The notes under the pieces: generated by a model
What the model saw: the letters and a program-made list of their open reading frames with translations, nothing else
Databases searched by the model: none
Told to the model about the DNA's origin: nothing
Assembly (NCBI GenBank): GCA_963759085.1
Contig: CAVWXR010000011.1
Location: forward strand, 91,707-155,706
Source: an uncultured Actinomycetes bacterium
Lineage (GTDB): Bacteria; Actinomycetota; Thermoleophilia; Gaiellales; Gaiellaceae
DNA: 64,000 nucleotides
Reading direction: 5' to 3'
Position numbers and translations under genes: made by a program
Part shown: positions 7,356 through 64,000 of the stretch, in pieces
Numbering within the stretch: the stretch's first letter is position 1
Layout: the number at the start of each line of letters is the position of its first letter

Positions 7356-7378
7356 AGGCTGGTGTAGCGTCCTGCTGG

Positions 7379-8410
7379 ATGCTCGCACTCGTGAAGGCGA
7401 ATGCCGCTCCGGGCCTCTGGCTCGAGCAGGTGGCCGAGCCTGAGATCGGAATCAACGACGTCCTGATCCGCGTGCACAAGACGGGGATCTGCGGGACCGA
7501 TCTGCACATCTACAACTGGGACGACTGGGCGCAGAAGACGATCGAGGTGCCGATGGTGATCGGCCACGAGTTCGTCGGCCACGTGGTGGCCGTCGGCGCC
7601 AACGTCAGCGACTTCGAGGCCGGCGACCTCGTCAGCGGCGAGGGCCACGTCGTCTGCGGGCGCTGCCGCAACTGCCTGGCCGGCCGGCGCCATCTGTGCG
7701 CCCACTCGATCGGCCTCGGCGTCAACCGCGCCGGCGCGTTCGCCGAGTACGTCTCGCTCCCGATGACGAACATCTGGAAGCACGCGCCGGGGATCGACGA
7801 GGAGGTGGCCGCGATCTTCGATCCCTTCGGCAACGCGGTGCACACGGCGCTCTCGTTCCCGGTGCTCGGCGAGGACGTGCTCGTCGCCGGCGCCGGCCCG
7901 ATCGGCTGCATGGCGACCGCCGTCGTGCGCCACGCCGGCGCGCGCCACGTCGTCGTCTCCGACCCGAACCCCTACCGCCTCGAGCTGGCGCGGCGGATGG
8001 GCGCGACGCTCGCGATCGACCCCCGCGAGCGCGACCTGCCCGGCGTGCAGCGCGAGCTGGGCATGACCGAGGGCTTCGACGTCGGCCTCGAGATGTCGGG
8101 CAACCCGGAGGCGCTGAAGGCGATGGTCGCGAACATGGCCCACGGCGGCCGCATCGCGCTGCTCGGGATCCCGTCCGAGCCGATCACGCTCGACCTGAGC
8201 CCGCTGATCTTCAACATGCTCACGGTCAAGGGCATCTACGGCCGCGAGATGTACGAGACCTGGTACCAGATGACGGTGATGCTCCAGTCCGGGCTCGACA
8301 TCGGCCCGGTGATCACGCACCGCTTCTCGTGCCGCGACTACGAGGAGGCCTTCGCCGTCGCCCGCTCCGGGCAGTCGGGCAAGGTCATCCTCGACTGGAC
8401 CGACATCTAG
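7379..8410 (+). CDS. tdh: L-threonine 3-dehydrogenase (Zn-dependent)
   Basis: [19 protein letters not shown], structural-zinc cysteines [16 protein letters not shown], and Rossmann [11 protein letters not shown]. Followed directly by kbl. Confidence 0.95.
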
Positions 8411-49258: not shown

Positions 49259-50496
49259 TCTGCCAGGAGCTCGAGGAGCCGGACCACGGTCGCCGCCGAG
49301 ACCGCCATGTCCTGGACGCTGATCCACTCGCGCACCGAGTGGAACTCGTTGCCGCCGGTGAAGATGTTCGGCGTCGGTAGGCCCTTCTCCGTTAGCCGTG
49401 AGCCGTCGGTGCCGCCGCGGATCGATGCGAGCCGGGGCTCCAGGCCCGCGCGCCTCGTCGCCTCGAGCGCCGCCTCGACGACGTGCGGCACGCGGTCGAG
49501 CGCCTCGCGCATGTTGCGGTACTGATCCCAGCGCGTGAACGTCACCTCGGGGCAGATCTCCTGCGCCAGCCCGCGAACGAACGCTTCGTGCTCCGCGAGC
49601 TTCTCCCCGTCGTGGTCGCGGAGGATGAACGTGACGGTGCACTGCTCGGCGTTGCCCGCAATCTCGTAGGGATGCACGAATCCCTCCTGCCCTTCGGTCG
49701 TCTCGGGCGAGAGGGTGTCCTTCGGCAGGCGCTCGATCAATGCGGCCGCGAGCTTGAGCGGATTCACGAGCTTTCCCTTCGCGGTGCCCGGATGCACGCC
49801 GACCCCGGGAAACGTGACCGTCAGCTCGACCGCCGAGAACGTCTCGTTCTCGATCTCGCCGACGACCGACCCGTCCACGGTGTAGGCGAAGTCGGCGCCG
49901 AACGCGGCGATGTCGAAGTGGTCGGTACCGTGCCCGACCTCCTCGTCGACCGTGAACGCGATTCGCGCCGTCGTGCGCGGCACCTCGGGGTGGGCGACGA
50001 GGTAGGCGACCGCGGCCATGATCTCCGCCACCCCGGCCTTGTCGTCGGCACCGAGCAGCGTCGTGCCGTCGCTCGTCACGATGTCGTGCCCGAGCCGCTC
50101 CGCGAGCAGGGAGGAGGTCTCCGGCGAGAGCCCGGGCACGAGCTCGCCGCCGGCGTAGCTCCGGTGGACGATCGGGCTCACTCCGGAGGCGGGCGCGTCG
50201 GGGCTCGTGTCGACGTGCGCGACGAGGCCGACGGTCGGGCCGGCGCCCGAGCCCGGCAGCGTCGCGAAGACGTATCCGTGCTCGGTCAGCTCGGCGTCGG
50301 CGAGCCCGAGCTCCTGCAACTCGCGCAGCAGCAACCGTGAGAGGTCGAGCTGCTTGGCCGTCGACGGATAGGTGTCCGAGCCACGCGCCGACTGTGTGTC
50401 GATCCGGACGTAGCGCAGGAAGCGCTCGAGCGCGTCGGCCTGGAGCAGAGCGGCGAGCTGCGATTGCGTGGCCACGACGGAAAGCGTACGTCTCAT
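49255..50496 (-). CDS. pepT: peptidase T (M20B tripeptidase)
   Basis: ATG 50496 (MRRTLSVVATQSQLAALL), LVAHVDTSPDAP, LLGADDKAGVAEIMA. Confidence 0.9.
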   Translation of the reverse strand: MRRTLSVVATQSQLAALLQADALERFLRYVRIDTQSARGSDTYPSTAKQLDLSRLLLRELQELGLADAELTEHGYVFATLPGSGAGPTVGLVAHVDTSPDAPASGVSPIVHRSYAGGELVPGLSPETSSLLAERLGHDIVTSDGTTLLGADDKAGVAEIMAAVAYLVAHPEVPRTTARIAFTVDEEVGHGTDHFDIAAFGADFAYTVDGSVVGEIENETFSAVELTVTFPGVGVHPGTAKGKLVNPLKLAAALIERLPKDTLSPETTEGQEGFVHPYEIAGNAEQCTVTFILRDHDGEKLAEHEAFVRGLAQEICPEVTFTRWDQYRNMREALDRVPHVVEAALEATRRAGLEPRLASIRGGTDGSRLTEKGLPTPNIFTGGNEFHSVREWISVQDMAVSAATVVRLLELLAE

Positions 50497-50546
50497 GCGG
50501 TTCCGAGCGGCTCTTCTTGCCGCCTGCCAGGGGATAAGCTCGCCCG

Positions 50547-51125
50547 ATGAGTGAGGCGGTTGTCGAAGGCGGAGCCGTTCCGACTCTGATCCCGCGCCGC
50601 CTGCTCCTCCTGCCCGCGGTCGCGCTGACACTGCTCCTCGTCGGGATCGCCTGGAACCGCGTGTGGCCGCTCGACTTCCTGCACGTCTTCTTCGGCGGGC
50701 TCTGGACCGGGGCGGACCTCTTCGCGGGCTTCCTGATCGGCCCGATCGCCCGCGGTCTCGAGCCGCCCGTCCGGCGGGCGTTCGTGCAGCGCTACATGCC
50801 GCGGCTGATGGTGCTGATGCCGACGCTCGCGATCGTCACCCTCGTCGCCGGCTGGCAGCTCGCGCGCCACACGGGCGTCCTGACCGAGGGGTATCCGCGC
50901 CACTGGTGGGTCGTCTCGTCGTTCGCGATCGTCGGCGTGATGGCGACGATCAACTTCGCGCTGCTCCTGCCCGCGAACCTCCAGGTGCTGACCGAGCTGC
51001 GGAAAGCGAGTCCGAACGCAGAGCTGATCGGGCGCCTGATGGCGCGCTACAGTACGATCGCGGCCGCGATCGGCTGCTTGCAGCTCGGCACGATCGTCGT
51101 CATGTCGAGGCTCGCGACCTTCTGA
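50547..51125 (+). CDS. integral membrane protein, paralog of 96-702
   Basis: 192 aa with four or more TM helices. Shared motifs with the first gene of the window. Confidence 0.75.
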   Translation: MSEAVVEGGAVPTLIPRRLLLLPAVALTLLLVGIAWNRVWPLDFLHVFFGGLWTGADLFAGFLIGPIARGLEPPVRRAFVQRYMPRLMVLMPTLAIVTLVAGWQLARHTGVLTEGYPRHWWVVSSFAIVGVMATINFALLLPANLQVLTELRKASPNAELIGRLMARYSTIAAAIGCLQLGTIVVMSRLATF

Positions 51126-51589
51126 TGGCGAGCCCGTTCGCCCAGCCGGAGCGCCAGCAGGGCGTGCCGCTCCCTCCACCGGACGCGTTCGCCGTCGTGA
51201 CGCTGATGCTCGTGTTCGGCGCGATCGGGACGCTCGCCGCGTACCTGCCGTTCAACGCGCCGCTGGAGGTGACGCTGCCGCTGATCGAGGTCGCCATCGC
51301 CGTCTACGCCGCGGCAGTGTGGCGGCTCTTTGCGACCCGGACCTACGCCTGGTCGACCTTCCTCGCCGTCGCCCGTCCGACGCTCCTGGCGGCCGGGACG
51401 GCGGCCGCGATCGTCGAGCTCGCCTTCTACTACGACAAGACCGGCGGCCGCTCGCTCGCGATCCTCTCGACCGGGCTCGTGCTGGTCGTGCTCGACCTGG
51501 CGCTGCTGCTCGGCTACTCGGTCGCCCGGAACGAGCCGTTGCCCGAGCCCGAGGTCGAGCCGTACCTGCCGTTCGGCCACGGCTCGTAG
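51125..51589 (+). CDS. hypothetical integral membrane protein
   Basis: ATG 51125 overlaps the upstream stop (TGATG). 154 aa with four hydrophobic helices. Confidence 0.65.
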   Translation: MASPFAQPERQQGVPLPPPDAFAVVTLMLVFGAIGTLAAYLPFNAPLEVTLPLIEVAIAVYAAAVWRLFATRTYAWSTFLAVARPTLLAAGTAAAIVELAFYYDKTGGRSLAILSTGLVLVVLDLALLLGYSVARNEPLPEPEVEPYLPFGHGS

Positions 51590-52299
51590 TCGAGCACCTC
51601 GTGGCCGTGGCGCCGCAGCCACGCGGCCCGCTCTTTCCACCCCGGTAGGTGAGCGTCGAGCAGCGCCCAGAACGCGCGCGAGTGGTTCGGCTCCCTGACG
51701 TGCAGCAGCTCGTGTGCGACCACGTACTCGAGCACCTCCGGCGGCGCGAGCACGAGCCGCCAGGAGAACGAGAGCGTTCCGCGTGTCGAGCACGATCCCC
51801 AGCGCGTGCGCTGATCGCGGATCGAGACGCGCGCGTAGGAGATCCCGAGGCGCGCCGACTCGCGGGCAACGGCTGCTTCGAGCCGTTCGCGGGCCTCGCG
51901 GCGGTACCAGCGGTCGATCGCGCCCGCGAGCTGGTCGGGCGGGCCCGAGATGCGCAGCGCCCCGCCATGCCGGTTCGCAACCGGCTTCGGCCCGCCGCCG
52001 CGCTCGACCGCGAGCCGCTCGCCGGCGAGCCACACCGTCCCGGGCTGATGGAGTCCGAGCAGCGGGCTCGTCAGGCGCGCCCTGGCCATCGTGTCGGCGA
52101 GCCAGTCCGAGTTGTCGGAGAGGAACTGCCGCAGTGCCCGCGTGCTGGTTCTGCGCGGCACGGTCAACTCGACCGACCGGCCCGCGCGAACCACCATCCG
52201 CAGCCGGCGCGTCCGCGCCGATTCGCGCACGACCGCGACGATCGTCTCGTCTCCGACGATGACGTCGAACTCGCGCAGGGGGCGCTCACTCACGCTCAC
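51514..52299 (-). CDS. YgjP-like (DUF45/M48-related) metal-dependent hydrolase
   Basis: TRWGSCSTRG and VVAHELLHVREPNHS. Confidence 0.85.
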   Translation of the reverse strand: MSVSERPLREFDVIVGDETIVAVVRESARTRRLRMVVRAGRSVELTVPRRTSTRALRQFLSDNSDWLADTMARARLTSPLLGLHQPGTVWLAGERLAVERGGGPKPVANRHGGALRISGPPDQLAGAIDRWYRREARERLEAAVARESARLGISYARVSIRDQRTRWGSCSTRGTLSFSWRLVLAPPEVLEYVVAHELLHVREPNHSRAFWALLDAHLPGWKERAAWLRRHGHEVLDYEPWPNGRYGSTSGSGNGSFRATE

Positions 52300-52337
52300 G
52301 AGCGTAGTGGCGAGCCCGGTCGCCGTGGGTGGTGGGG

Positions 52338-52571
52338 CTACGCCGCAGTCAGATGCAGCCCGGCGTGGTGCCCCGCCAGGACGGCGAGCTCGCGCCGGTG
52401 GCGCTCGATCTCTGCGTCATAGGTCCGAAGCTCGTCCTTGGCGACGCCGTGCCGCTCGAAGATCGAGCGCAGGCGCACGAGATCCCGGATGTGCTGCAGC
52501 TCTTCCTCGATCTCGTTCTGCTCCCGACGTTCGTCGAAGCGAGACGGGCGGGTGTGGATGTGGACAGCCAT
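52338..52571 (-). CDS. hypothetical small helical protein
   Basis: 77-aa charged ORF (EQNEIEEELQHIRDLVRLRSIFERHG). No family recognised. Confidence 0.4.
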   Translation of the reverse strand: MAVHIHTRPSRFDERREQNEIEEELQHIRDLVRLRSIFERHGVAKDELRTYDAEIERHRRELAVLAGHHAGLHLTAA

Positions 52572-52651
52572 GTCGGTTCAACTCCTTCTCGTATTGAGGC
52601 AGAGCCTGTCAGCGAGAGTTGAAGATTTGCTGTGATCCGGCTAAGAACTGC

Positions 52652-52987
52652 CTAAGACCGAGCTTGGGGCGCGCGCTCGACCTCGAGCGTGAGGCCGTCG
52701 ACGCCTGTGATGCGCACCACCTCGCCGACCCGCGCCCCCTGGGCGGCGTGCGCGCGCCAGATCTCGCCGCCGTGCCTGACCTGGCCGGTCGGCTCGAGCG
52801 CCGTGATCACCTCGGCGGTCTCGCCGACCAGCGTCTGCGCGCCGACCTGGGCCCGGCGGCGCTTCGAGTAGCGGATGCCGACGACCGCGAGCGTCGTCTC
52901 GCAGACCACGGCGCCCGCGACCACGATCAGGCCCCAGGGCGAGGGCAGGAAGAGCAGCGCGAGGAGGAGTGCGATGATGATGAGCAC
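52652..52987 (-). CDS. NfeD family protein
   Basis: Two N-terminal TM helices plus a C-terminal OB-like part (GETAEVITALEPTGQVRHGGEIWRA...VVRITGVDGLTLEV). Confidence 0.75.
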   Translation of the reverse strand: MLIIIALLLALLFLPSPWGLIVVAGAVVCETTLAVVGIRYSKRRRAQVGAQTLVGETAEVITALEPTGQVRHGGEIWRAHAAQGARVGEVVRITGVDGLTLEVERAPQARS

Positions 52988-53117
52988 GCGACGTCATCGT
53001 ATGCCGCGTTACCTCCACGCCTCGAAGATCCGGCGCCGCGGCCACCCCGAATTCTCACGCTACTCTCACGTGTGCGGGCTACAAGTTGAGCAGCAACAAC
53101 GTAGGGGGTTCAGCAGC

Positions 53118-54308
53118 ATGAGCTTGTTTCGTCGTCTTTCCACGCGCAGCCTGGTCGTTCTGATCGGCGCGCTCGCGACGTCCGGCGCCGTCGCAGCGAT
53201 CGTCGCCGTCACGGCGCTTGGCGGCGGCGGCACGACACCGCCCGCCGAGCCGCTCTCGCAGGCGATTCACGACGCGGTCACGTCAACGCCGGTTCAAGGC
53301 ATCACCGCGCGGATCGGCTTCACGAACAACCTGCTCGGCTCCGGCGCGCTCGGCTCGCTTGCCGGTGCCTCGGGCTCGCCGCTGCTCACCGGTGCCTCCG
53401 GACGACTCTGGCTGACGAACGACGGCCACCTCCGGCTCGAGCTGCAGTCCGACTCTGGCGACGCGCAGATCGTCTCGGACGGGAAGACGCTGTCGGTCTA
53501 CGACGCGTCCTCCAACACCGCCTACGAGCTGACGCTTCCGGCGGCGTCCTCCGGCCCCTCGGCCGGCACGAAGGCGGCGCCCTCGATCGACGAGATCCAG
53601 AGCGCGCTCGCGCAGCTCGGCGATGTCGCCGACATCTCCGGCGCAACCCCGGGCTCGGTCGCCGGCCAGCCGGCCTACACCGTCTCGGTCTCGCCGAAGG
53701 CGGACGGCGGCCTCGTCAGCTCGGCTGAGCTGAGCTTCGATGCCGTCACCGGCGTGCCGCTCCACGTCGCGGTGTACGCGAAGGGAGACACCACCCCGGT
53801 GCTCGACCTGACCGCGACGGACATCAGCTACGGGCCTGTCGCCGCCTCGGACGTGAACGTCTCGCCGCCGGCGGGAGCGAAGATCGTCAACGTGCCCCTG
53901 CCGGCTAGCACCGGCTCGGGAAGCGACAAGACTGCGACGCCCGTCACCGGCGTTGACGCCGTCGGCGCCGCCCTGCCGTTCAAGCTGGCCGCCCCCGACA
54001 CACTCGATGGGCTGGCCCGCAGCGAGGTGCGCCTCACCGGCTCCAGCACCGATCCGGGAGCCCTCGTCACCTACGGCCAGGGCCTCGGCGCGATCGTCGT
54101 CTCGGAGCACGCGGCTTCCGCCGCCAAGGACGCGGCGAGCCCGCTCGACCTGCTGCCGAGCGTGACGATCAACGGCGCGACCGGCCACGAGCTCGTGACC
54201 GCGCTCGGAACCGTCCTCCAGTACTCGGCCGGCGGTGTCTCCTACACCGTCGCCGGCTCGGTCACGCAGTCCGACGCCGAGACCGCGGCGCGGGCGCTCA
54301 CGTCCTGA
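53118..54308 (+). CDS. LolA-like / DUF2092-like exported protein
   Basis: ATG 53118 with a signal anchor (LVVLIGALATSGAVAAIVAV). ASGRLWLTNDGHLRLELQSDSGDAQIVSDGKTLSVYD. Lies upstream of the ABC transporter. Confidence 0.65.
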   Translation: MSLFRRLSTRSLVVLIGALATSGAVAAIVAVTALGGGGTTPPAEPLSQAIHDAVTSTPVQGITARIGFTNNLLGSGALGSLAGASGSPLLTGASGRLWLTNDGHLRLELQSDSGDAQIVSDGKTLSVYDASSNTAYELTLPAASSGPSAGTKAAPSIDEIQSALAQLGDVADISGATPGSVAGQPAYTVSVSPKADGGLVSSAELSFDAVTGVPLHVAVYAKGDTTPVLDLTATDISYGPVAASDVNVSPPAGAKIVNVPLPASTGSGSDKTATPVTGVDAVGAALPFKLAAPDTLDGLARSEVRLTGSSTDPGALVTYGQGLGAIVVSEHAASAAKDAASPLDLLPSVTINGATGHELVTALGTVLQYSAGGVSYTVAGSVTQSDAETAARALTS

Positions 54309-55237
54309 GCGCGGCCGCCGCACCGGTCGAGGCGCGCGGGCTCGTCAAGCGCTACGGCGAGATCGTCGCCGTGGCGGGAGTCGACCTGACCGTCGCGGCC
54401 GGCGACGTCTACGGCTTCCTCGGCCCAAACGGTGCCGGCAAGACGACGACGCTGCGGATGCTGCTCGGCCTGATCCGGCCGAGCGAGGGCGTCGTGAAGC
54501 TCTTCGGCCGCGACCCGCTGAGCGACGGCGCCCGCGCGCTCGAAGGAGTGGCGGGGTTCGTCGAGGGCCCGCGCTTCTACCCCTACCTGAGCGGCCGCAA
54601 GAACCTCGAGCTGCTCGCCGCCTACGACCAGACGGCAGCCGGCCGCAGCGAGATCGACGCGGCGCTCGACATCGTCGAGCTCCGCGACCGCGCCAAGGAC
54701 CGCGTCGGCGGCTACTCCCACGGCATGCGCCAGCGGCTCGGGATCGCCGCCTCGCTGCTGCGCAAGCCGAAGCTGCTCCTGCTCGACGAGCCTGCAACAG
54801 GTCTCGACCCGGCGGGAATGCGCGACATGCGCGCGCTCGTCCGCCGCCTCGCCGACGACGGGATGACGGTCGTCCTCTCGAGCCACCTGATGAGCGAGGT
54901 CGAGGAGCTCTGCAACCGCGTCGCGATCATCTCCAACGGGCAGATCATCCGCGAGAGCACGCTGCGCGACCTGCTCGCGAGCGCCGCGGGCCTCTACCGG
55001 CTGGACGTCACCGACCTCGCCGCGGCGCGTGCCGTCTGCGAGGCGCACGGCGTCAGCGCCGCGCCCGAGAACGGCGGCCTCGTCTTCAACGCCGACCCGG
55101 ACCAGGTCGCGACGCTCTCGATCGCGCTCGGCAAGGCCGAGATCGGGATCTACAACCTGGTTGCTGAGGGTGCCTCGCTGGAGCGGCTATTCCTCGAGCT
55201 GACCGATCCCGACACGCCCGTGGCGGCGGTCGCCTGA
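54305..55237 (+). CDS. ABC transporter ATP-binding protein
   Basis: FLGPNGAGKTTTL, YSHGMRQRLGIA, LLLLDEPATGLD. The first canonical start in frame is GTG 54371, but the upstream frame (VEARGLVKRYGEIVAV) is clearly part of the domain. This implies CTG 54305 or an indel. Confidence 0.85.
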   Translation: MSAAAAPVEARGLVKRYGEIVAVAGVDLTVAAGDVYGFLGPNGAGKTTTLRMLLGLIRPSEGVVKLFGRDPLSDGARALEGVAGFVEGPRFYPYLSGRKNLELLAAYDQTAAGRSEIDAALDIVELRDRAKDRVGGYSHGMRQRLGIAASLLRKPKLLLLDEPATGLDPAGMRDMRALVRRLADDGMTVVLSSHLMSEVEELCNRVAIISNGQIIRESTLRDLLASAAGLYRLDVTDLAAARAVCEAHGVSAAPENGGLVFNADPDQVATLSIALGKAEIGIYNLVAEGASLERLFLELTDPDTPVAAVA

Positions 55238-56052
55238 TGGCCGGCGCGCTCGTCGTCTACCGCTGGGAGCTGCGGAAGCTCTTGCGCCAGAAGCGGACCT
55301 ACCTCGGGATCGGCGCGGCGGTGCTCGTGCCGCTGATCTTCGTCACCGCGCTCACCGTCCAGAAGGGCCAGCCGAACGACGTCGACTTCGGCCGCTACGT
55401 CCGCGAGTCGGGCCTCGCGATCCCGCTCGTCCTGCTCCTCTTCGGCTCGATCTGGCTCTTCCCGCTGATCGCGGCCCTGGTCGCGGGCGACATCATCGCC
55501 TCGGAGCACCACAACGGCACGATGAAGACGATCTTCACGCGCTCGCTCGACCGCGGCCAGATCTTCGCCGGGAAGACGATCGCGGCGCTGACGTACTCGT
55601 TCGTCGCGCTGCTCGCGATGGGCGTGACCGCCGTCGTCGCGGGAGTGATCAAGTCGGGCTTCAACCCGCTGGTCGACCTCTCCGGCACGCGCGTCGCGGC
55701 GCCGAAGGCACTCGGCCTCGTCGCGGCGAGCTTCGCCGTCTACATGCTGCCGCTGGTCGCGATCGTCTGCTTCGGCCTGCTGCTCTCGGCCCTGACCCGC
55801 AACAGCGCGGCCGCGGTCGTGGGGACGCTGATGTTCGCGCTCCTGATGCAGCTGATCGGGATCCTGCCCGGGCTGCAGGGCGTGCAGCCGTACCTGCTGA
55901 CGACGCAGTTCCAGGCGTGGCAGGGCTTCCTGCGCGTCCCGGTCGACTGGTCGCCGGTGATCCGCGCCGCCTGGCTGACCGCGGCCTATGCGCTGCCGCC
56001 GCTCTTCGCCTCGTACCTGATCGTGCTCCGCAGCGACATCACCGGCGAGTAG
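55237..56052 (+). CDS. ABC-2 type transporter permease
   Basis: 271 aa with six hydrophobic segments. ATGA-type overlap with the ATPase gene. Confidence 0.8.
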   Translation: MAGALVVYRWELRKLLRQKRTYLGIGAAVLVPLIFVTALTVQKGQPNDVDFGRYVRESGLAIPLVLLLFGSIWLFPLIAALVAGDIIASEHHNGTMKTIFTRSLDRGQIFAGKTIAALTYSFVALLAMGVTAVVAGVIKSGFNPLVDLSGTRVAAPKALGLVAASFAVYMLPLVAIVCFGLLLSALTRNSAAAVVGTLMFALLMQLIGILPGLQGVQPYLLTTQFQAWQGFLRVPVDWSPVIRAAWLTAAYALPPLFASYLIVLRSDITGE

Positions 56053-56062
56053 CGTTCAAGGT

Positions 56063-56707
56063 ATGAAGGTCGAGATCTGGTCCGACGTCGTGTGCCCGTG
56101 GTGCTACGTGGGCAAGCGCCGCTTCGAGTCCGCGCTCGCGCGCTTCGACCACCGCGACGAGGTGGAGGTCGTGTGGCGGAGCTTCGAGCTCGACCCGGAG
56201 GCGCCGCGCCGGCGCGAGGGCACGCCGGCCGAGCATCTCGCTGCCAAGTACGGCATGAGCCCGGAGCAGGTCGCCGCCTCGCAGGAGCGCCTGACCGGCC
56301 TCGCGGCCGAGGAGGGCCTCGAGTACCACCTCGACACGACGGTCGGCGGCAACTCGTTCGACGCCCACCGCCTGATCCACCTCGGCGCGGCCCACGGGAT
56401 CCAGGACGAGATGAAGGAGCGCCTGCTGCACGCGTACTTCACGGAGGGCGCCGCGATCGGCGAGCCCGAAGTGCTGCAGCGCCTCGGAGTGGAGGCGGGT
56501 CTGCCGCCCGACGAGGTTGCGGAGCTCCTGGCTGGGGACCGCTTCGCCGCCGAGGTGCGCGACGACGAGCAACGGGGCTTCGTGTTCGGGATCCGCGGCG
56601 TCCCGTTCTTCGGGATCGACGAGCGGATCGGCGTCTCGGGCGCGCAGTCGGCGGACGTGATTCTCGCGGCGCTCGATCAGGCCTGGTCCGAGCGCGCTGC
56701 CGCGTAG
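56063..56707 (+). CDS. DsbA/FrnE-like thiol:disulfide oxidoreductase
   Basis: MKVEIWSDVVCPWCYVGKRRF...FGIRGVPFF. Confidence 0.9.
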   Translation: MKVEIWSDVVCPWCYVGKRRFESALARFDHRDEVEVVWRSFELDPEAPRRREGTPAEHLAAKYGMSPEQVAASQERLTGLAAEEGLEYHLDTTVGGNSFDAHRLIHLGAAHGIQDEMKERLLHAYFTEGAAIGEPEVLQRLGVEAGLPPDEVAELLAGDRFAAEVRDDEQRGFVFGIRGVPFFGIDERIGVSGAQSADVILAALDQAWSERAAA

Positions 56708-56714
56708 GCGCGGC

Positions 56715-57122
56715 TCAAACCGGTGCGATCAGAGTCACCGTCGGAAAATACGCCTTGTAGCGACGCGGGTCGCGGGTGAGGAGTGGCAGGCCGGCGACGG
56801 CTGCGTGTGCCCCGATGTAGAAGTCGGGGAGAGGCGAGCGTTGCTGCCCCCGCCGCCGCCGGCACGCGACGAACGCTCGGCCGGCCAGGAACGCGGCTTC
56901 CCACGGCAACGGTAGCCGGACGAACACGTCCGGCGACAGGACGGTGTCAAGCTCCTCGATTTGTCCGAAGCGCGCAGACGTTTCGGCGTAGATCAACGGA
57001 TTGATCGCGAGATAGCCGCGGTCGGCTGCCTTCGCGAGCTCTGTCGACGACCACCCGTACCAGTGTGGGTCCTCGGTGAAGATGTCGAGCAGGACGTTCG
57101 AGTCGACGAGGACTGCGCTCAC
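56715..57122 (-). CDS. vapC: PIN-domain toxin VapC
   Basis: MSAVLVDSNVLLDIF...LLTRDPRRY. 4-nt overlap with vapB. Confidence 0.85.
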   Translation of the reverse strand: MSAVLVDSNVLLDIFTEDPHWYGWSSTELAKAADRGYLAINPLIYAETSARFGQIEELDTVLSPDVFVRLPLPWEAAFLAGRAFVACRRRRGQQRSPLPDFYIGAHAAVAGLPLLTRDPRRYKAYFPTVTLIAPV

Positions 57123-57343
57123 CCGCGGGTGAGCGCCATGATCTCGTCGGTGGAGAGCTTGCCCGTGCCTCGCCCCCTCATCCGTTCGACCAGAGCGGCG
57201 CCCCGCCCCGGAGTGCCGGGAGCCCGAGTCAAGCGGACAGCGTCGCCGTCGAGCTCGAACTCGACCTCGGTCCCAGGGAGCAAGCCAGCTCGTTGGCGCA
57301 GCTCGATCGGGATCGTGACCTGGCCTTTCGAGGTGATTCGCAC
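57119..57343 (-). CDS. vapB: AbrB/SpoVT-type antitoxin VapB
   Basis: GTG 57343, MRITSKGQVTIPIELRQRAGL. The 15-bp palindrome GGTAAGA-A-TCTTACC (57344-57358) abuts the start codon. Confidence 0.85.
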   Translation of the reverse strand: MRITSKGQVTIPIELRQRAGLLPGTEVEFELDGDAVRLTRAPGTPGRGAALVERMRGRGTGKLSTDEIMALTRG

Positions 57344-57387
57344 GGTAAGAATCTTACCTCGCAGAGTAATACCCGATTGGCCCGCGT

Positions 57388-57411
57388 CAATCCGCTCTTG
57401 CGGACGTGTCC
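57388..57411. repeat. 24-nt box CAATCCGCTCTTGCGGACGTGTCC upstream of vapBC (repeat-family member)
   Basis: Matches 63257-63280 at 22/24. The 3' 15 nt match the left flank/arm of the pheT palindrome at 14/15. Confidence 0.8.
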
Positions 57412-57418
57412 TCTAGAC

Positions 57419-58471
57419 CTAGAACGCGCGCGGGCGGAGCGTGTCGTCCTGGCGCCGGCGCAGCGACGCGTCGTCGATCGCCGGCGGAACGTAGCCGGAG
57501 TCGGCCTGGTTGAAGTTCGTCCCGGGCGGCACGATCTTGTCGATCTCGTCGAGCAGCTCGTCCTCGAGGTGGATGTCCACGGCGCCGATTTGGCTCTCGA
57601 ATTGCTCCATGGTGCGCGGCCCGATGATCGCCGAGGTGACGGCCGGGTGCCGGATCACGAACGCGATCGCGAGGTGGATGAGCGAGATCCCGGCGTTGTC
57701 GGCGAGCTGCGCGAGCGCGTCGGCGGCGTCGAGCTTGCGCTGGTTCTCGGGCAGCGAGAGGTCGTAGCGGTTGGGCAGCCGGCTCGCGCGCGTGCTTGCG
57801 GGCGCGTCCTGTCCCTTGCGCCAGTTCCCGGTGAGCCACCCACCGGCGAGCGGGCTCCAGGAGAGCACGCCCAGCCCGTACTGCTGGCAGACCGGCAGCA
57901 CGTCGCGCTCGATCCCTCTTGCCAGGAGCGAATACGGAGGCTGCTCGGTCTTGAATCGCTCGCGGCCGTTCTGCTCGGCGACCCACTGCGCCTCGACGAT
58001 CTCGTGCGCGGGATAGGTCGAGCTGCCGAAGTAGCGAATCTTCCCGGCCCTGACGAGGTCGGTCAGCGCCCCGAGGGTCTCGTCGTGGTCGGTCGATGGA
58101 TCGGGCCGGTGGATCTGGTAGAGGTCGATCCAGTCGGTCTGCAGCCGGCGCAGGCTGTTCTCCACCTCCTGGATGATCCAGCGCCGCGAGTTGCCGCCCA
58201 TGTTGGGCCCGTCGCCCATCCGGCCGTGCACCTTGGTCGCGAGCACAACCTGGTCGCGCCGCCCGAGCAGCGCCTTGCCGACGATCTCCTCGTTCTCGCC
58301 GGCCGAGTAGACGTCAGCGGTGTCGACGAAGTTGATCCCGGCGTCGAGCGCCCGGTGGATGATCCGGATCGAGTCCTCGTGATCGGGGTTCCCCCAGGCG
58401 CCGAACATCATCGCGCCGAGGCAGAGGGGGCTGACTTCGACGCCGGTGCGGCCGAGGAGGCGGAGGTCCAT
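57419..58471 (-). CDS. aldo/keto reductase
   Basis: 350 aa, GAMMFGAWGN, INFVDTADVYSAGENEE, SWSPLAGGWLTG. Confidence 0.9.
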   Translation of the reverse strand: MDLRLLGRTGVEVSPLCLGAMMFGAWGNPDHEDSIRIIHRALDAGINFVDTADVYSAGENEEIVGKALLGRRDQVVLATKVHGRMGDGPNMGGNSRRWIIQEVENSLRRLQTDWIDLYQIHRPDPSTDHDETLGALTDLVRAGKIRYFGSSTYPAHEIVEAQWVAEQNGRERFKTEQPPYSLLARGIERDVLPVCQQYGLGVLSWSPLAGGWLTGNWRKGQDAPASTRASRLPNRYDLSLPENQRKLDAADALAQLADNAGISLIHLAIAFVIRHPAVTSAIIGPRTMEQFESQIGAVDIHLEDELLDEIDKIVPPGTNFNQADSGYVPPAIDDASLRRRQDDTLRPRAF

Positions 58472-58676
58472 GGAGGCACGCTAGCGATCGGCTCGGCGGA
58501 GCCGTCGGCGGACCTGCTCGCGTGTGACCCGGGCCGCGGCTCGCGCGTAGTCCGTACGGAACATATCCGCAGTCGTCGTTGGTTCGAGAGGAGAATGCCG
58601 TTGTCCGGCCAAGTGCTCTCATGCCTGTTTGAAAGCGACGGTCGACGACCGTCACGCGAGAGTAGATACTGGAGAC

Positions 58677-59351
58677 ATGAAGCTCGTAGACCGGAAAGGC
58701 GTCTACTCGGCCGACCGAGCGGCGGCTCTTTCCGGCGTGCCGCTGTCGACGGTTCACTACTGGGCGCGCAAGGAGATTCTCGTTCCGAGCGTCTCGGCCG
58801 TCCGGATCAAGCTCTGGTCGTACGCGGATCTCATGGGCCTGCGGACGATCTACTGGCTTCGGCAGACCAAGACCGCCAGCGATGGACGTGACGTTCCTCG
58901 TACGACGATGCCCGCGGTGAAGAGGGCGCTTGAGACCCTGAACGAGCTGGACCTGAGCCTCTGGACCGAAGAGGGAGGGCCGGCCGTCATGGTCGACCGA
59001 GGTGGCAGGGTATGGTTTCGGTCGAGCGGCGAAGTGCTTGCTTCGACCGGTGTACGACCCCTCGATCCGGATTGGATCGACCTGATCGAGCCGTTCACCA
59101 CCCGTGAGTCAACGCAGGGGCCGAATCTCCAATCGCCCCGTCCCCATCTGCGGATCGTCCCAGGAAAGCTCTCGGGTTCGCCCCATGTCGTGAGCACCCG
59201 CATCGAGACGGTGGTGCTCGCCTCGTTTGCCGACCGCGGCTTCGCCAGCGAGCAAATTCACCAGTTCTATCCCGTGGTTTCGGTCGGCGCGATCGCCGAG
59301 GCAATCGATCTCGAGCGTCAACTCATACGAAACCTGAAGACCGCCGCCTGA
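58677..59351 (+). CDS. MerR-type HTH fused to a DUF433 domain (antitoxin-like)
   Basis: YSADRAAALSGVPLSTVHYWARKEILVP (HTH). C-terminal RIVPGKLSGSPHVVSTRIETVVLASFADRGFASEQIHQFYPVVSVGAIAEAIDLE (DUF433 pattern). The alternative start is TTG 58629. Confidence 0.75.
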   Translation: MKLVDRKGVYSADRAAALSGVPLSTVHYWARKEILVPSVSAVRIKLWSYADLMGLRTIYWLRQTKTASDGRDVPRTTMPAVKRALETLNELDLSLWTEEGGPAVMVDRGGRVWFRSSGEVLASTGVRPLDPDWIDLIEPFTTRESTQGPNLQSPRPHLRIVPGKLSGSPHVVSTRIETVVLASFADRGFASEQIHQFYPVVSVGAIAEAIDLERQLIRNLKTAA

Positions 59352-59358
59352 GGCTGCG

Positions 59359-59932
59359 GTGCCGCGGCTCTTCGCGCTCGATCAGAACTTCCCGCAGCCC
59401 CTCGTCAACGCCGTTACGCCGTTCCTGCGCGATGTCGAGCTCGTCCCGATCAGGACAATCGATGCGCGGCTCTCGGACATGGAGGACTGGGAGATTCTCC
59501 TCGCGCTCCACCACCATCATCGCCCGTGGGAGGGTCTCGTGACAACCGACTCGTCGATGCTCAAGCAACCGCGCGAGCTTGCCGTGCTGCGACAGACCAA
59601 CCTGACACTCGTTGTCGCGCACGACGGGGGCCACGACCTCGTGAAAGCAACGGGTCTCCTGCTCGCACATCTCGACTACATCGTTCGACACTCGACGCCG
59701 GCCGAGGCCCAGGTCTGGCGGCTCAGCGCTCGCAGTCAGCCGGCACAAGCCGTCGTGGATCTTCTCGACCGAATCGCGGCGCACCAGAATCGGGATGCCG
59801 ATGAGCTCTGGCGCGAATCCCGACTCACAACTGCCGAGCTCGCCGCCGATCCGCTTGCCGGCGGAGGTCGCGGCGCGTTTGGGGGCTTCGGCAACCGACG
59901 CTTGTCGCGAGCCGCGGTTGCCAATAGTCTGA
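59359..59932 (+). CDS. PIN-like/DUF5615-like putative nuclease (toxin-like partner of DUF433); 3' end unresolved
   Basis: GTG 59359, 8 nt after the DUF433 gene. LFALDQNFPQPLV...DWEILLAL...EGLVTTDSSMLKQPRELAVLRQTNLTLVV. As sequenced the frame runs on to 60159, 190 nt into mod. The tail from about 59870 is low-complexity, and a G5 run sits at 59881-59885. Confidence 0.5.
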
Positions 59933-59966
59933 GTCCTCGGAGTGGCTCAACTCGGAAAGGGCGGCG

Positions 59967-62662
59967 TTGGCGGCTAAAGGCGGCAAGCGAGCAGAGACCT
60001 ATCGCCACGACGAAGAGGCGCTGCTTCGGCCGGACGTCGGGACTCAGGCACAGTTCAGGAAGCGCAAGGCGCCCAAGACCTACACGTACGACTCGTCGCT
60101 CTCGCCCGCGCTCGACTGGGACGGGCAGAACGCCGCTCGCGAGCTCGGCGAGTGGCTGATCGCTCAGATCGACGAGGCTGCCAAGCTCGACGCTCCGCAC
60201 CGATTTCCCGAGCCTCGTCGCTGCGGCGACGTCGAGATCGGCGGTCTCGCCGACGCTGTCGAGCGGTTGAAGGCGCTCTCCAAGCCGTTCCTCGACTGGA
60301 GCGGCAAGGCCGAGCGGCTCTCGTTCGACGTGCCGACGCTGCCGCTCTTCGTGCACGAGCGGCTCTCGACCAAGGCGATCCTCCAGACGCTCGCCGGGCA
60401 CGAGCGCGATCGGCAGCTGGAGCTTCAGCTCTTCGCCGATCCGCAGCTGCCGCTCCACGAGCAGCTCGACGCCTACGAGCACAAGGGCGACTGGGTCAAC
60501 CGGATGATCCTCGGCGACTCGCTCGTCGTCATGAACTCATTGCTCGAGTACGAGGGCCTCGGCGGGCAGGTGCAGATGATCTACATCGACCCGCCTTACG
60601 GCGTGAAGTTCGGCTCCAACTTCCAGCCGTTCGTCCGCAAGCGGGATGTCAAGAACAACGACGACGCCGATATGACCCGCGAGCCCGAAATGATCAAGGC
60701 GTATCGGGACACTTGGGAGCTCGGACTGCACTCGTATCTGACGTACTTGCGCGATCGCCTCCTTGTCGCGCGAGATCTCCTGGCTCGTTCCGGAAGCGTC
60801 TTTGTTCAGATCGGAGACGAGAACTTTCACCATGTTCGTGAGACGCTCGACGATGTGTTCGGCGCTGAGAACTTTTGTGCAGTAATCGCGTTCCAAACGA
60901 CGACGGGCCTCGGATCCTCGCTTCTCGTAGGTACTTTCGATTTCGTCCTCTGGTACGCGCGAGATCGAAATGACGTGCACTACGAACAGGTTTACGTCCC
61001 GCGCACCGTTCAAGACGATCAGAACCTGAGGTGGGTCGAGCTTTCCGACGGCGTTCGGCGTCGCATGACCGACGATGAGGCGGTGCATCCCGATGCTCTC
61101 CCTCTCGGCGCCCGCCCATTCCGACCCAATCCGTTGACCTCGCAAGCGCCGAGCCCGACCGCGGTGTTTGAGTACGAGTTCGCTGGTCAGACGTTCAAGC
61201 CGAGGAAAGGGGCGTGGAAGACGACGGTCGATGGCCTCCGAAGGCTCGAGGAGGCCGGGCGGCTCGTGGCGCAGGGCAACACGCTTGGCTTCATTCGGTA
61301 TCTCGATGACTTTCCGTATCGGCCTACTAACAACGTCTGGAGTGACACCCGACAGAGCGGTTTCGCAGTCGCAAAGGCCTATGTGGTGCAGACAAATCCG
61401 CGAGTGATCGAACGCTGCATGATGATGACCACTCGTCCTGGCGACCTCGTTCTCGACCCGACCTGTGGCTCAGGTACGACGGCGTACGTCGCCGAACAGT
61501 GGGGTCGGCGTTGGATCACGGTGGACACGTCGCGTGTTCCACTCGCGTTGGCGCGGCAGCGTCTTCTCACAGCGACTTTCCCTTACTACGAACTCCACGA
61601 TGCGGGGCGAGGGCCGGCCGCGGGTTTCATCTACAAGCGTCGCCAAAACGCAAAGGGTGAGGAGGTCGGGGGCATCGTCCCGCATGTAACGCTCAAGTCG
61701 ATTGCAAACGACGAACCTTCTGACGAAGAGGTGCTCGTTGACCGGCCCGAGATCGACTCCAAGATCACCCGGGTGACCGGCCCGTTCGTGCTCGAGGCGA
61801 CGATCCCGACGCCGGTCGAAGTCGATGGCGACGGGATCGAGGACTCGGGCGTGCTCGACGACGCGACCTACGTCGGCCGGATGGTTGAGGCGCTGCGGCT
61901 GAACGCGACCCTCCAGCTCGGCGGCAACGAGAAGCTCACGCTCGCGAACGTCCGGCCGCCGGCGCAGTCGCTCGTGCTCTCGGCCGAGGCGTCGCTCGAG
62001 CCCGGGGGACGCCGGTCGCGATCGTCTTCGGGCCCGAGAACGGCGCGGTCAGCGAGAAGCTCGTCTACGAGGCCGCCCGCGAGGCGCATCTGCGCAGCTA
62101 CGAGCAGCTGCTCGTGATCGGCTTCGCGATCGAGCCGAACGCGCGGGCGCTCGTCGACAAGATCGACGCGACGGTCGGGATCCCCGCGATTTACGTGCAG
62201 GCGACGCCCGATCTCGTCATGGGCGACCTGCTGAAGACGATGCGGTCGAGCCAGCTCTTCTCGATCGCCGGCCTGCCGGACATCGCGATCCGCAACGTCC
62301 CGCCCGAGGAGAAGGGCGAGCCGCAGCGCTATTCAGTGGAGTTACTCGGTCTGGACACGTTCGATCCGACGACGTTCGAGGCGCGGCACGAGCGCGGCGA
62401 CGACGTCCCGGCGTGGTTCCTCGACACGGCGTGGAACGGCCTCTCGTTCCACGTCTCGCAGGCGTTCTTCCCGCGCACGAGCGCCTGGGACAACCTGAAG
62501 CGCTCGCTCAAGGGCGAGTTCGACGACTCGGTGTGGGACCACCTCTCGGGTTCGATCAGCGCGCCGTTTACCGCTGGCGACGTGCGGGAGATCGCCGTGA
62601 AGGTGATCGACGACCGCGGCAACGAGCTGCTCGTCGTCAAGTCGCTCGACGAGGCGACGTGA
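59967..62662 (+). CDS. Type III-like DNA methyltransferase (Mod; N6A/N4C beta-class), one frame break at the G5 run 62004-62008
   Basis: TTG 59967. MIYIDPPYGVKF (DPPY motif) and LVLDPTCGSGTTAYVA (AdoMet motif). Track ORFs 59967-62117 and 62114-62662 join if one G is added: ...SLEPGG TPVAIVFGPENGAVSEKLVYEAAREAHLRSYEQLLVIGFAIEPN... Confidence 0.9.
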
Positions 62663-62667
62663 AGGCG

Positions 62668-62931
62668 CTAGGCGAGCAGATCGCCGAGGTCGGTGACGAC
62701 GACCGTGTGCTCCGGCAGCGTCAGCTCGATCTTCCCGTCTTCCTCGAGTCGCAACTTTGCGCTCAAGATCGTCAGGCCGACGAGGCTGCCGTCCGGCCCG
62801 TAGCGCGTCGCATCGCCTTCGGCCGTCCCGTCATAGTCAACAGCGTCAGACGGTTCGCCGACGTGGAGGTAGAGGACGTCGCCTCTCGCGTCGTAGAGAT
62901 TGTTGTCGAACTCGATTCCGGCGACCTTCAC
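62668..62931 (-). CDS. DUF2283 domain protein (antitoxin-like)
   Basis: GTG 62931 (GTGA overlap with the upstream gene). VKVAGIEFDNNLYDARGDVLYLHVGEP...GSLVGLTIL. Confidence 0.7.
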   Translation of the reverse strand: MKVAGIEFDNNLYDARGDVLYLHVGEPSDAVDYDGTAEGDATRYGPDGSLVGLTILSAKLRLEEDGKIELTLPEHTVVVTDLGDLLA

Positions 62932-63224
62932 GGCTTTGGAAGCAGGGGCCGTCTGAACGCTGTGACTATCCACCCTTCTCCACCTCTTTCGTAGTGTACG
63001 ACGACGTGCAGCCACGGGCGCGGCCCGCTTCCTTCGACGAAGTACCAGACGTCGCCGGGGTTTCGACCCGGCATTCGTCGGTCGGGTTCTCGTACAGCGG
63101 CGACGATTTCGCGGAGAGATCGGCGCAAGTCCGGGTGGCGAGCCTTGATGTGACTCCAGCCATACTCGTCCAACACGACACGACGGCCATCCGGATCGAG
63201 GGTCACGGAGACCGGGTCGGGCAC
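62928..63224 (-). CDS. small putative toxin (RelE/BECR-like fold guess), partner of DUF2283
   Basis: 98 aa, VVLDEYGWSHIKARHPDL...WLHVVVHYERGGEGWIVTAFRR. The family assignment is tentative. The operon structure with DUF2283 is the main argument. Confidence 0.55.
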   Translation of the reverse strand: MPDPVSVTLDPDGRRVVLDEYGWSHIKARHPDLRRSLREIVAAVREPDRRMPGRNPGDVWYFVEGSGPRPWLHVVVHYERGGEGWIVTAFRRPLLPKP

Positions 63225-63256
63225 CGTGGCAGCATCAACGCTCCATTCGTGCGACG

Positions 63257-63280
63257 CAATCCGCTCTTTCGGACGCGTCC
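63257..63280. repeat. 24-nt box CAATCCGCTCTTTCGGACGCGTCC abutting the res ATG (repeat-family member)
   Basis: Matches 57388-57411 at 22/24. Contains the perfect 10-bp palindrome GGACGCGTCC. Confidence 0.8.
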
Positions 63281-64000
63281 ATGAGCTCGTTTGAAGTCGA
63301 GAATCCGATCCTCAGCTCGCCCTACGTCGAGCCGGCCGAGCACTGGCGGATCCATGAAGGCGAGACGGCACGGCGCGAGGAGGGGCGGCGCCGAGCGGGC
63401 TACTACTTCCGCGATCCGCGCGATCTCGACGAGACGGGGCTCGCGATCGGCAAGTGGCAAGAGCTCGAGCTCGTCAACCTGGTGCGCCAGCGCGTCGCTG
63501 CCTGGCGCGAAGCGGGGTATCCCGGCGCAAGCCGGACCACCCTCGACCTCCTGAAGCACTGGCGGCGCGAGGGCCGCTTCCGGCGGCTCTTCTTCGCCCA
63601 ACTCGAGGCCGCAGAGTCGATCATCTTTCTCGTCGAGGGGCGGTCTGATCTTCTCCAGGGCGTTGACGTTCCGCTCGAGAAGGTTCCCGATGACGTCGAT
63701 GCTTTTCGCCGCTACGCCTGCAAGATGGCGACCGGCGCGGGCAAGACGACGGTGATGGGGATGATCTGCGCCTGGAGCATCCTGAACAAGGTCACGTCCC
63801 GCGGCGACGCGCGCTTCTCCGACACCGTCCTCGTCGTCTGTCCGAACCTGACGATCCGCGGCCGTCTCACGGAGCTCGATCCGAACCGCGGCGAGGCGTC
63901 GGTCTACCGCACGCTCGACCTCGTCCCCGACGACCTGATGCCACAGCTTCGGCGTGGGCGCGTGCTCGTGAAGAACTGGCACGAGTTCGAGCGCAAGGGG
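63281..64000 (+). CDS. Type III restriction enzyme Res subunit (helicase-nuclease), 5' part only; continues beyond the window
   Basis: Read by hand; not in the track because no stop is reached. MSSFEVENPILSSPYVEPAEHWRIHEGE...RYACKMATGAGKTTVMG (helicase motif I)...VVCPNLTIRGRL. Confidence 0.85.
   Translation, partial: MSSFEVENPILSSPYVEPAEHWRIHEGETARREEGRRRAGYYFRDPRDLDETGLAIGKWQELELVNLVRQRVAAWREAGYPGASRTTLDLLKHWRREGRFRRLFFAQLEAAESIIFLVEGRSDLLQGVDVPLEKVPDDVDAFRRYACKMATGAGKTTVMGMICAWSILNKVTSRGDARFSDTVLVVCPNLTIRGRLTELDPNRGEASVYRTLDLVPDDLMPQLRRGRVLVKNWHEFERKG

Follow-up and report, generated by a model that had tools for sequence, protein, structure and literature searches.

What kind of defence locus lies at the end of a 64,000-nucleotide (nt) stretch of DNA from an uncultured Actinomycetes bacterium of the Gaiellaceae (assembly GCA_963759085.1, contig CAVWXR010000011.1, positions 91,707 to 155,706 of the forward strand)? 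The whole stretch is referred to here as the window. Near its end the + strand carries, in this order, a gene for a helix-turn-helix (HTH)/DUF433 protein, a gene for a PIN-like protein, and the mod and res genes of a Type III restriction-modification operon; a toxin-like gene and a DUF2283 gene lie on the opposite strand between mod and res. A preliminary description read the whole as a composite defence island, in which the added nucleases might be regulated together with restriction. Is this one system, or several that have come to lie side by side?

The guanine plus cytosine (GC) content along the window falls from about 0.70 to 0.63-0.66 at about position 58500. The lower-GC region is probably a horizontally acquired patch that holds three separable modules and no single five-gene system. 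These modules would be the upstream HTH-DUF433/PIN_10 pair, the Type III restriction-modification operon and a mobile antisense toxin/DUF2283 pair. The open reading frames (ORFs) are regarded as genes rather than chance ORFs because they have many homologues elsewhere. Much of the earlier gene list stands: the + strand order is borne out by the ORFs and by family matches in PADLOC, Pfam and NCBIfam, both ORFs of the small pair on the - strand have homologues, and the idea of a defence island agrees with the gene inventory and with the toxin-antitoxin and defence-type genes around it. The proposed co-regulated multi-gene architecture has to be given up, as the modules are separable and the upstream pair is found beside none of the 29 other mod loci examined.

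A pair of genes upstream of mod

The features of the upstream pair, with the evidence for each, are as follows.

58677-59351, + strand: protein with MerR-type HTH and DUF433, putative antitoxin or regulator (MerR_1, DUF433, pairing with the PIN-like gene)
59359-60159, + strand: PIN_10-like protein, putative toxin, homologous part 59359-59862 (303 homologues, PIN_10)

Does this pair belong to the restriction system? Relatives of the PIN-like gene were collected from a metagenome scan and from context look-ups, which gave 88 loci. Of these, 67 have more than 700 nt of upstream sequence, and in 64 of them the gene immediately before the PIN-like gene encodes an HTH-DUF433 relative; the other three are repeats of a single sequence with a frameshifted PIN gene. 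The matched HTH-DUF433 and PIN-like segments are separated by a median of 21 nt across loci. The two genes thus keep company with each other. Do they keep company with mod and res? In the 39 loci where more than 1 kb can be read downstream of the PIN-like gene, no relative of the window's mod or res is present. Conversely, the pair is found in none of the 25 genome loci that encode Mod relatives, nor in three further loci to be described below (L114, L120 and L121; the L numbers denote the loci compared); the 25 include those of the closest Mod relatives, L013 (88% identity), L015 (87%) and L023 (83%). Elsewhere the pair turns up in scattered places: a conjugative element carries it in L027/L028, in L109 it adjoins HNH, SMODS and transposase genes, and in L110-L113 its neighbours are housekeeping genes. 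By this distribution the pair is an autonomous two-gene module, a neighbour of the restriction system rather than a part of it. The preliminary description had named absence from homologous mod-res loci as the mark of a hitch-hiker, and the upstream pair is indeed beside no other mod locus that was examined.

Two observations on relatives may be added. In a Mycobacteriales metagenome-assembled genome (MAG), L026, an HTH-DUF433/PIN pair at 2498-3764 has hsdR on one side and hsdS on the other, within a type I restriction locus, and a second small pair, which includes a DUF5615 protein, lies 3 kb away from it. In two metagenome contigs a same-strand DUF2283-like ORF follows the PIN-like gene directly (L042 649-840, L086 1129-1245), without an adjacent toxin match.

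The HTH-DUF433 ORF is open from TTG 58629 (58629-59351), with ATG 58677 the likely start because homologues align from about residue 17. The protein has a MerR_1 match just above the Pfam cutoff (E=1e-4, 22.8 bits, cutoff 21.6) and a C-terminal DUF433 match just under it (E=1.6e-4, 21.9 bits, cutoff 23.6), and its homologues carry equally weak marks of both. The PIN-like ORF starts at GTG 59359, 7 nt past the HTH-DUF433 stop. Where does it end? Among the 120 homologues listed with their lengths, nearly all are 166-173 amino acids (aa) long, and in the alignment they end in '...DPLA-x'. Their usual stop position corresponds to codon 169 of the window gene, which reads GGA (59863-59865), consistent with a point mutation of TGA. 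As the usual stop is lost, the ORF runs on for 98 Arg-rich codons to the first stop in frame at 60159, across the 101-nt spacer and 193 nt into mod. The earlier statement that the gene ends about 35 nt before mod would need a change of frame; the normal end would lie 101 nt before mod, and the actual ORF overlaps it.

Is the second protein a PIN protein? The PIN_10 match of the window protein stays under the cutoff (E=1.3e-4, 22.4 bits, cutoff 26.2), and PIN_10 matches 13 of 27 homologues, at best with E=2.5e-6. The acidic residues D8, D64 and D93 are invariant in the family and present in the window protein, and an AlphaFold2 (AF2) model has a predicted local distance difference test (pLDDT) score of 91. 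The family profile has no match among Protein Data Bank (PDB) sequences, and hhalign gave a negative result for the one DUF5615 protein compared. A place in the PIN clan is thus moderately supported. The HTH-DUF433 protein is predicted to repress the operon and to neutralise a PIN-type RNase.

An antisense pair between mod and res

The operon and the pair embedded in it consist of the following features.

59967-62013, + strand: 5' part of Type III mod, about 680 codons, with N6_N4 methyltransferase domain (PADLOC, Pfam)
62001-62013, + strand: frameshift site in mod, loss of 1 nt at or next to the G5 run 62004-62008 (three-frame translation against homologues)
62003-62662, + strand: 3' part of Type III mod, about 219 codons, in a different frame (PADLOC PDLC03632)
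62668-62973, - strand: DUF2283 protein, putative antitoxin (Pfam DUF2283, pairing)
62928-63224, - strand: 98-aa BECR-fold toxin-like protein, first gene of the embedded pair (homologues, AF2/Foldseek)
63225-63280, strand not assigned: divergent intergenic region of 56 nt between the toxin start and the res start (alignment of five junctions)
63281-64000 and past the window end, + strand: Type III res, first 240 codons, with Walker A motif GAGKT (NCBIfam NF046055)

In loci of the same family without the pair (L009 and L018), the junction alignment shows the mod stop overlapping the res start (ATGA or GTGA). From this overlap, mod and res are taken to have been translationally coupled ancestrally, and the ancestral operon would have encoded a Mod of about 900 aa and a BPTD_3080-family Res with overlapping stop and start. 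The cassette of about 620 bp sits exactly at this overlap. The same order of mod, antisense DUF2283 and toxin genes, and res is found at the same junction in four further loci (L002, L114, L120 and L121), and three of the six toxin homologues sampled for context sit in the mod/res slot. The embedded pair is thus no random hitch-hiker. The five-gene arrangement proposed earlier recurs in part: mod, antisense pair and res are together in the four further loci, and the upstream pair is in none of them.

Has the pair descended with its hosts? Two trees were compared, one of the Mod C-terminus plus Res N-terminus, the other of the toxin/DUF2283 pairs. In the first, the window, L009, L121, L114, L120, L018 and L002 form one Mod/Res clade (99.5% bootstrap), within which the window groups with the pair-less L009 (84%) and L002 with the pair-less L018 (100%). 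In the second, the restriction-embedded pairs are not monophyletic: the sister of the L002 pair (99.5%) is that of L115, a non-restriction locus in which the pair adjoins an AAA_12 helicase gene and a DUF3427 gene. The pairs form two deep lineages: one, A, consists of the window, L121, L002, the first L120 pair, L115 and L117; the other, B, consists of L114 and the second L120 pair. Other contexts outside restriction loci are beside an integrase (L119) and in toxin-antitoxin clusters (L117/L118). The lack of monophyly and the occurrence outside restriction loci indicate that the toxin/DUF2283 pairs are mobile. A single ancestral insertion with strict co-descent was considered and rejected, as the pair-less L009 and L018 nest among pair-bearing loci and the pairs are not monophyletic. 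The idea that one cassette had swept through these loci recently was rejected too, the pairs being as diverged as Mod and Res (52-76% identity).

How does the cassette move? In L120 (956-2204) the mod/res junction holds a lineage A pair and a lineage B pair as a tandem, and the close relative L114 has B alone. A leftover piece of the mod 3' end, about 20 nt long ('GAGGCGACGTGA'), stands between the two L120 pairs. The tandem and the remnant point to recombination between two cassette-bearing loci, not to a site-specific integrase, and it is by recombination that the cassette appears to move between restriction loci.

The preliminary description had also raised a second effector layer regulated together with restriction. 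This is poorly supported, as the pair is found elsewhere as well, the phylogenies differ and, as described next, mod is broken in all five loci.

Broken mod genes and their possible causes

The identification of a Type III-like Mod is upheld. The 5' part, which starts at TTG 59967, matches PADLOC MTase_III PDLC03632 (E=3.8e-132, profile positions 74-587) and Pfam N6_N4_Mtase (E=1.7e-26). It had been taken for one intact ORF, and this it is not: the frame changes at 62001-62013. The ORF in the original frame continues to 62117; the 3' part matches profile positions 765-980 of PDLC03632 (E=2.3e-20) and is 85% identical to the L009 Mod, which is uninterrupted there, and a tblastn comparison of that intact Mod with the window gives two frames. 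Because L009, L018, L002 and L114 are continuous across the site (in the stretch '...SAEA.LEPDD.PVAIVFGPENG...'), the window mod is one base short. Type III Res depends on Mod for DNA recognition. With mod frameshifted, the restriction system of the window is most likely inactive.

Is the window an isolated case? The five pair-bearing loci carry the following lesions.

Window: mod, loss of 1 nt near codon 680 (about position 690 of the L009 Mod); res, first 240 codons visible; stop of the PIN-like gene lost
L002: mod, frameshift at about codon 28; res, frameshift at about codon 240; 11-bp tandem duplication in the toxin gene
L114: mod, frameshift at about codon 93; res, frameshift at about codon 295
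L120: mod, frameshift at about codon 563, in a G6 run; res, first 293 codons visible
L121: mod, TAA nonsense codon at codon 611; res, frameshift at about codon 700

Mod is broken in all five, as against three of 18 pair-less loci (L024, L025 and L017); the 15 distinct pair-less mods that remain have no frame change and no in-frame stop. The one-sided Fisher test for pair against broken mod gives p=0.0017 over all loci, p=0.005 with L114 and L120 counted as one, and p=0.048 within the clade alone. The association is suggestive only, given the few loci sampled, their relatedness and the mix of data sources behind them. The lesions vary in type as well as in position and are therefore regarded as independent. 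Phase variation was considered as the source of the window frameshift and rejected as unlikely: Tandem Repeats Finder (TRF) found no simple-sequence tract in mod, the longest homopolymers being two G5 runs, and the lesion sites in the five loci are unrelated.

Could the lesions of the window, the mod frameshift and the lost stop of the PIN-like gene, be errors of sequencing or assembly that hide an intact and active Type III system? A single base missing at a G5 run, in a mod otherwise well conserved and followed by a well conserved visible part of res, is what such an error would look like. The loss of the PIN-like stop, however, needs a substitution and not an indel, and the pair-bearing loci other than the window, which come from independent data sets, are all four disrupted as well; the TAA nonsense codon and the 11-bp duplication seen among them are atypical of read errors. 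Error throughout is therefore regarded as unlikely.

When did the lesions arise? Between L114 and L120 the ratio of nonsynonymous to synonymous substitution rates (dN/dS) is 0.09 for the Mod C-terminus, 0.11 for the Res N-terminus and 0.18 for Mod codons 550-679; it is 0.63 for the toxin and 0.31 for the DUF2283 protein. Values of about 0.1 in mod and res imply that the lesions are recent and that the restriction genes were under purifying selection with the pair already present. The same two loci are of interest for the centre of Mod. They are 95-99% identical in the Mod C-terminus and Res N-terminus, and they have no nucleotide match at Mod codons of about 332-560, where L120 is about 50% identical to the L009 and window Mods; this looks like an exchange of target-recognition domains. 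Several contigs (among L013, L015, L016, L017, L022 and L023) end within the first 130-300 mod codons, which suggests that assemblies break at this variable central region.

Why, then, is mod broken in all five pair-bearing loci? Several possibilities were weighed. One is a higher rate of inactivation once res has been uncoupled from mod. A further reading, tentative and improbable at present, makes the overlap of mod stop and res start a dedicated slot for exchangeable cargo, with the cassette functionally tied to the state of the host system. In its first version, which is possible, insertion of the cassette would uncouple res from mod, so that coupled expression of res would be lost and shut-off driven repeatedly and recently; in its second, also possible, the genome would retain inactivated restriction loci owing to the addictive cassette within them. 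Both versions would account for how mods came to be broken independently in five cassette-bearing loci despite long-term purifying selection.

Might the pair be simply an addiction cassette that retains dying restriction loci? Dead loci without a pair would soon be deleted, and deletion of those with a pair would be lethal to the cell. The excess of broken mods in pair-bearing loci, which persists when L114 and L120 are merged, and the independence and recency of the lesions speak for this explanation. It predicts heavily decayed pair-bearing loci, and none was seen, each of the five carrying one to three lesions. The sample is small and its loci are not phylogenetically independent, and in a study of Photorhabdus the genes around toxin-antitoxin systems were found not to be conserved (PMC13617665), which also speaks against retention. 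The explanation is judged unlikely.

A third possibility gives the pair a function within the system. Could it be an accessory of the PrrC type, a 'guardian' or backup effector that fires when restriction is inhibited or failing? The same slot in five loci of one clade, the share of sampled toxin homologues found there and the purifying selection on mod and res in the pair-bearing lineage (dN/dS 0.09-0.18) fit such a role, as do the other defence-type cargo of the slot (ATPases like AriA, GajA and PtuA, and a pair like PDC-M66, see below) and the precedent of PrrC itself (PMC12707154). Against it, mod is broken in five of five loci, as is res in the three that show enough of it, so that the pair persists without working restriction. 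The toxin brings a partner protein and an orientation of its own, the pair is also found apart from restriction genes (L115, L117, L119), and its tree is incongruent with that of Mod and Res. A guardian role is accordingly judged quite improbable.

The reading of the region as three separable modules is preferred, and some findings weigh against it. The recurrence of the embedded pair, in five loci and in half of the sampled contexts, exceeds what pure hitch-hiking would give, and a dN/dS of about 0.1 between two pair-bearing loci leaves room for a functional tie. The single-base lesion at a homopolymer could be a sequencing error. Protein identities enter as well: the window proteins are under the Pfam cutoffs for PIN_10, DUF433, DUF2283 and DUF4258, and a Foldseek search with the model of the PIN-like protein returned generic Rossmann-like alpha/beta/alpha folds and zero PIN structures.

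Other cargo at the junction and upstream of mod

Is the toxin/DUF2283 pair the only guest at the junction? The forms of the junction were compared in relatives with both mod and res visible. Some are compact (L007, L009, L010, L018 and L019/L020). Others carry genes, as follows.

L001 3200-4843, L004 3532-5298, L012 12804-14480 and L025 10294-11991: co-oriented ATP-binding cassette (ABC)-type ATPase of about 550 aa between mod and res (AAA_21/AAA_15)
L003 4638-5399: DUF3800 protein in the mod/res slot
L008 12747-14263: HipA_2-like and DUF3037 pair in the mod/res slot (PADLOC candidate PDC-M66A/B, E=7e-26 and 5e-45)

The ATPase, whose PADLOC matches are AriA, GajA, PtuA and Old, begins a few bases past mod and runs into the start of res, so that all four loci have a three-gene operon. 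The junctions of L005 and L024 hold genes without a family assignment. Among all these forms the toxin/DUF2283 pair is the sole antisense cargo. As far as the comparison of junctions goes, the place between mod and res serves this Type III family as a general cargo slot. Downstream of res, no conserved gene is common to the relatives.

The 5' side of mod is varied too. MNT-HEPN genes (L114), HEPN_RiboL-PSP (L121), a BrnA-like gene (L017) and DUF3800 (L005) are found there; such varied neighbours imply that the mod flank collects toxin-antitoxin-like and defence-like genes generally, as defence islands do. L006, a Gemmatimonadaceae MAG, has a MqsR-MqsA-SecB toxin-antitoxin-chaperone trio on the - strand (6420-7836), about 600 nt ahead of mod. 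In L015 a Schlafen/AlbA_2 gene (7448-8251) is flanked by mod 5' remnants (7553-7651 and 8177-8251), with the real mod start at about 9047, which suggests exchange of cargo by recombination at the mod 5' end as well. A tRNA-Phe gene (L013 9731-9803) and a tRNA-Val gene (L009 7284-7356) lie about 200-250 nt upstream of mod, as is expected for islands integrated at tRNA genes.

The proteins of the embedded pair and the start of res

What does the embedded pair encode? The toxin-like protein has 69 close homologues of 91-105 aa, and a profile search gave 1673 cluster representatives at E<=1e-3, some of which are C-terminal domains of large proteins. The domain is at the extreme C-terminus of proteins of 972 aa (P0333), 409 aa (P0296) and 333 aa (P0310), in the style of polymorphic toxins. 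None of the 33 family members scanned passes a Pfam threshold; the weak matches among them are to PBECR2 (8/33, best 3.7e-4) and DUF4258 (8/33, best 3.5e-3), and the window protein itself matches DUF4258 with E=0.034 and 14.9 bits (cutoff 25). Residues W23, H25 and H30 are conserved in the family. The AF2 model has a pLDDT of 95.6, and its best Foldseek matches are a CdiA-CT toxin, 7m5f_C (prob 1.00, template modelling (TM) score 0.59), and BrnT 3u97 (prob 0.98), followed by the CdiA-CT 6cp9 and HigB2; all these matches have E-values >0.001. The model thus gives moderate support to a BECR fold. The toxin profile had zero significant matches among PDB sequences, and a tblastn search of annotated plasmids with the toxin gave zero matches.

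The partner has a Pfam DUF2283 match of E=2.4e-4 and 21.7 bits (cutoff 23). Its ORF has two alternative starts, GTG 63015 (115 aa) and GTG 62931 (87 aa, in a GTGA overlap with the toxin stop), and its stop is convergent with that of mod, 5 nt apart. In every context examined the DUF2283 gene follows the toxin gene. The cassette would encode a BECR-fold RNase-like toxin and the DUF2283 protein, transcribed away from res into the mod 3' end. If the first is toxic and the second neutralises it, the pair would act as an addiction or abortive-infection module.

Res follows mod in the same orientation, beginning at ATG 63281. It matches NCBIfam NF046055, 'BPTD_3080 family restriction endonuclease' (E=1.8e-83), and Pfam ResIII (E=1.2e-4). 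The visible 240 codons, beyond which the helicase C-terminal and nuclease parts lie outside the window, are 66-75% identical to the Res of L009, L018, L114 and L121. How is res expressed with the cassette in place? The divergent region 63225-63280 holds a short motif, GCAAT(C/T)(C/G)GC, conserved in the alignment of five junctions; no promoter consensus match was found in it. It is presumed to be the site of the promoter of the embedded pair and of whatever promoter res now uses.

Surroundings of the region

An aldo/keto reductase gene lies directly upstream of the island. Upstream of this gene in turn is a classical VapBC pair, a PIN toxin (56715-57122, - strand) with an AbrB/MazE-type antitoxin (57119-57343, - strand), which makes a third toxin-antitoxin-like pair within 7 kb. 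There are no tRNA genes in 50000-64000 of the window. The preliminary description had placed a repeat box at the res start; neither there nor anywhere else in 58400-64000 is there such a repeat, only low-identity matches at chance level at most. A scan for promoters and terminators gave one match each, both on the - strand inside genes and not above the shuffled expectation, and such a scan is uninformative for a high-GC organism.

Relation to known systems

The operon has the marks of Type III restriction-modification: an N6/N4 methyltransferase Mod upstream of, and co-oriented with, a Res that, as far as its first 240 codons show, is of the large superfamily 2 (SF2) helicase type, and a target-recognition region that varies between close relatives, as in L114 and L120. 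It differs in the frameshifted mod of the window and in the two-gene antisense cassette that parts mod from res. From phase-variable Type III mods (phasevarions) it differs in that the window mod lacks a simple-sequence tract for switching the frame.

For the upstream pair there is a known counterpart. Makarova et al. 2009 (PMC2701414) predicted PIN-COG2442 (DUF433) pairs to be toxin-antitoxin systems, among them versions fused to an additional HTH, for example Rv2018/Rv2019; one pair of the class, VapBC10, was studied in Synechocystis (PMC3834315). Like these, the window pair consists of adjacent co-oriented genes, the DNA-binding DUF433 protein first and the PIN-like protein second, conserved as a pair in scattered contexts. 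Compared by description with this class, Rv2018/Rv2019 included, the first protein of the window differs in being about 224 aa long with an N-terminal MerR-type HTH; the second, of about 168 aa, has a weak PIN_10 match and has lost its stop codon. The pair is predicted to fit the COG2442-PIN (VapBC-like) class.

The embedded toxin recalls the BECR toxins (DUF4258, PBECR2, BrnT and the CdiA-CT tRNases), among which DUF4258 has been placed (PMC11980606). It shares with them a small alpha/beta protein of about 95 aa, conserved His residues, the predicted fold, the order of toxin gene first and partner second, and occurrence of the domain at the C-terminus of large proteins. It differs in staying under the DUF4258 and PBECR2 thresholds and in its partner, which is DUF2283, a predicted antitoxin.

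Are there other restriction loci with guests inside? BrxU is an accessory gene embedded in a BREX island. PrrC is encoded within the EcoprrI type Ic hsd locus (PMC12707154), and a type IV system is embedded in a type I locus of Vibrio cholerae VPI-2 (bioRxiv 10.1101/2024.04.04.588119). The likeness to these loci is that an RNase-type or defence gene lies between modification and restriction genes and that the cargo of the slot varies by genome. The differences are a Type III host rather than Type I or BREX, a cargo that is a self-contained toxin/partner pair on the opposite strand, and a mod that is broken in every pair-bearing example found here. The comparison with PrrC as a 'restriction guardian' is similar: there too an RNase-like gene lies between modification and restriction genes, whereas the embedded toxin has a DUF2283 partner of its own and a broken host mod in all five loci. 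In the literature searched, no description was found of accessory genes embedded in Type III loci, which is not proof of novelty, nor of an antisense toxin/partner pair occupying the mod/res junction.

Significance

What does the locus mean for the bacterium and for this Type III family? For the window alone the outcome is modest: its restriction system is probably dead, and the upstream pair is merely a neighbour. It is the recurrence of the embedded pair, the pattern of a cargo slot and the uniformly broken hosts, taken together, that are most worth following. Type I and BREX loci are known to hold accessory defence genes, and a recurrent slot between mod and res of Type III loci would be comparable. 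If the link between the pair and broken restriction is true, it would point to a putative toxin family and a DUF2283 partner family, and these loci would be a natural case of toxin-antitoxin cassettes that stabilise decaying loci, or of insertions that switch restriction off.

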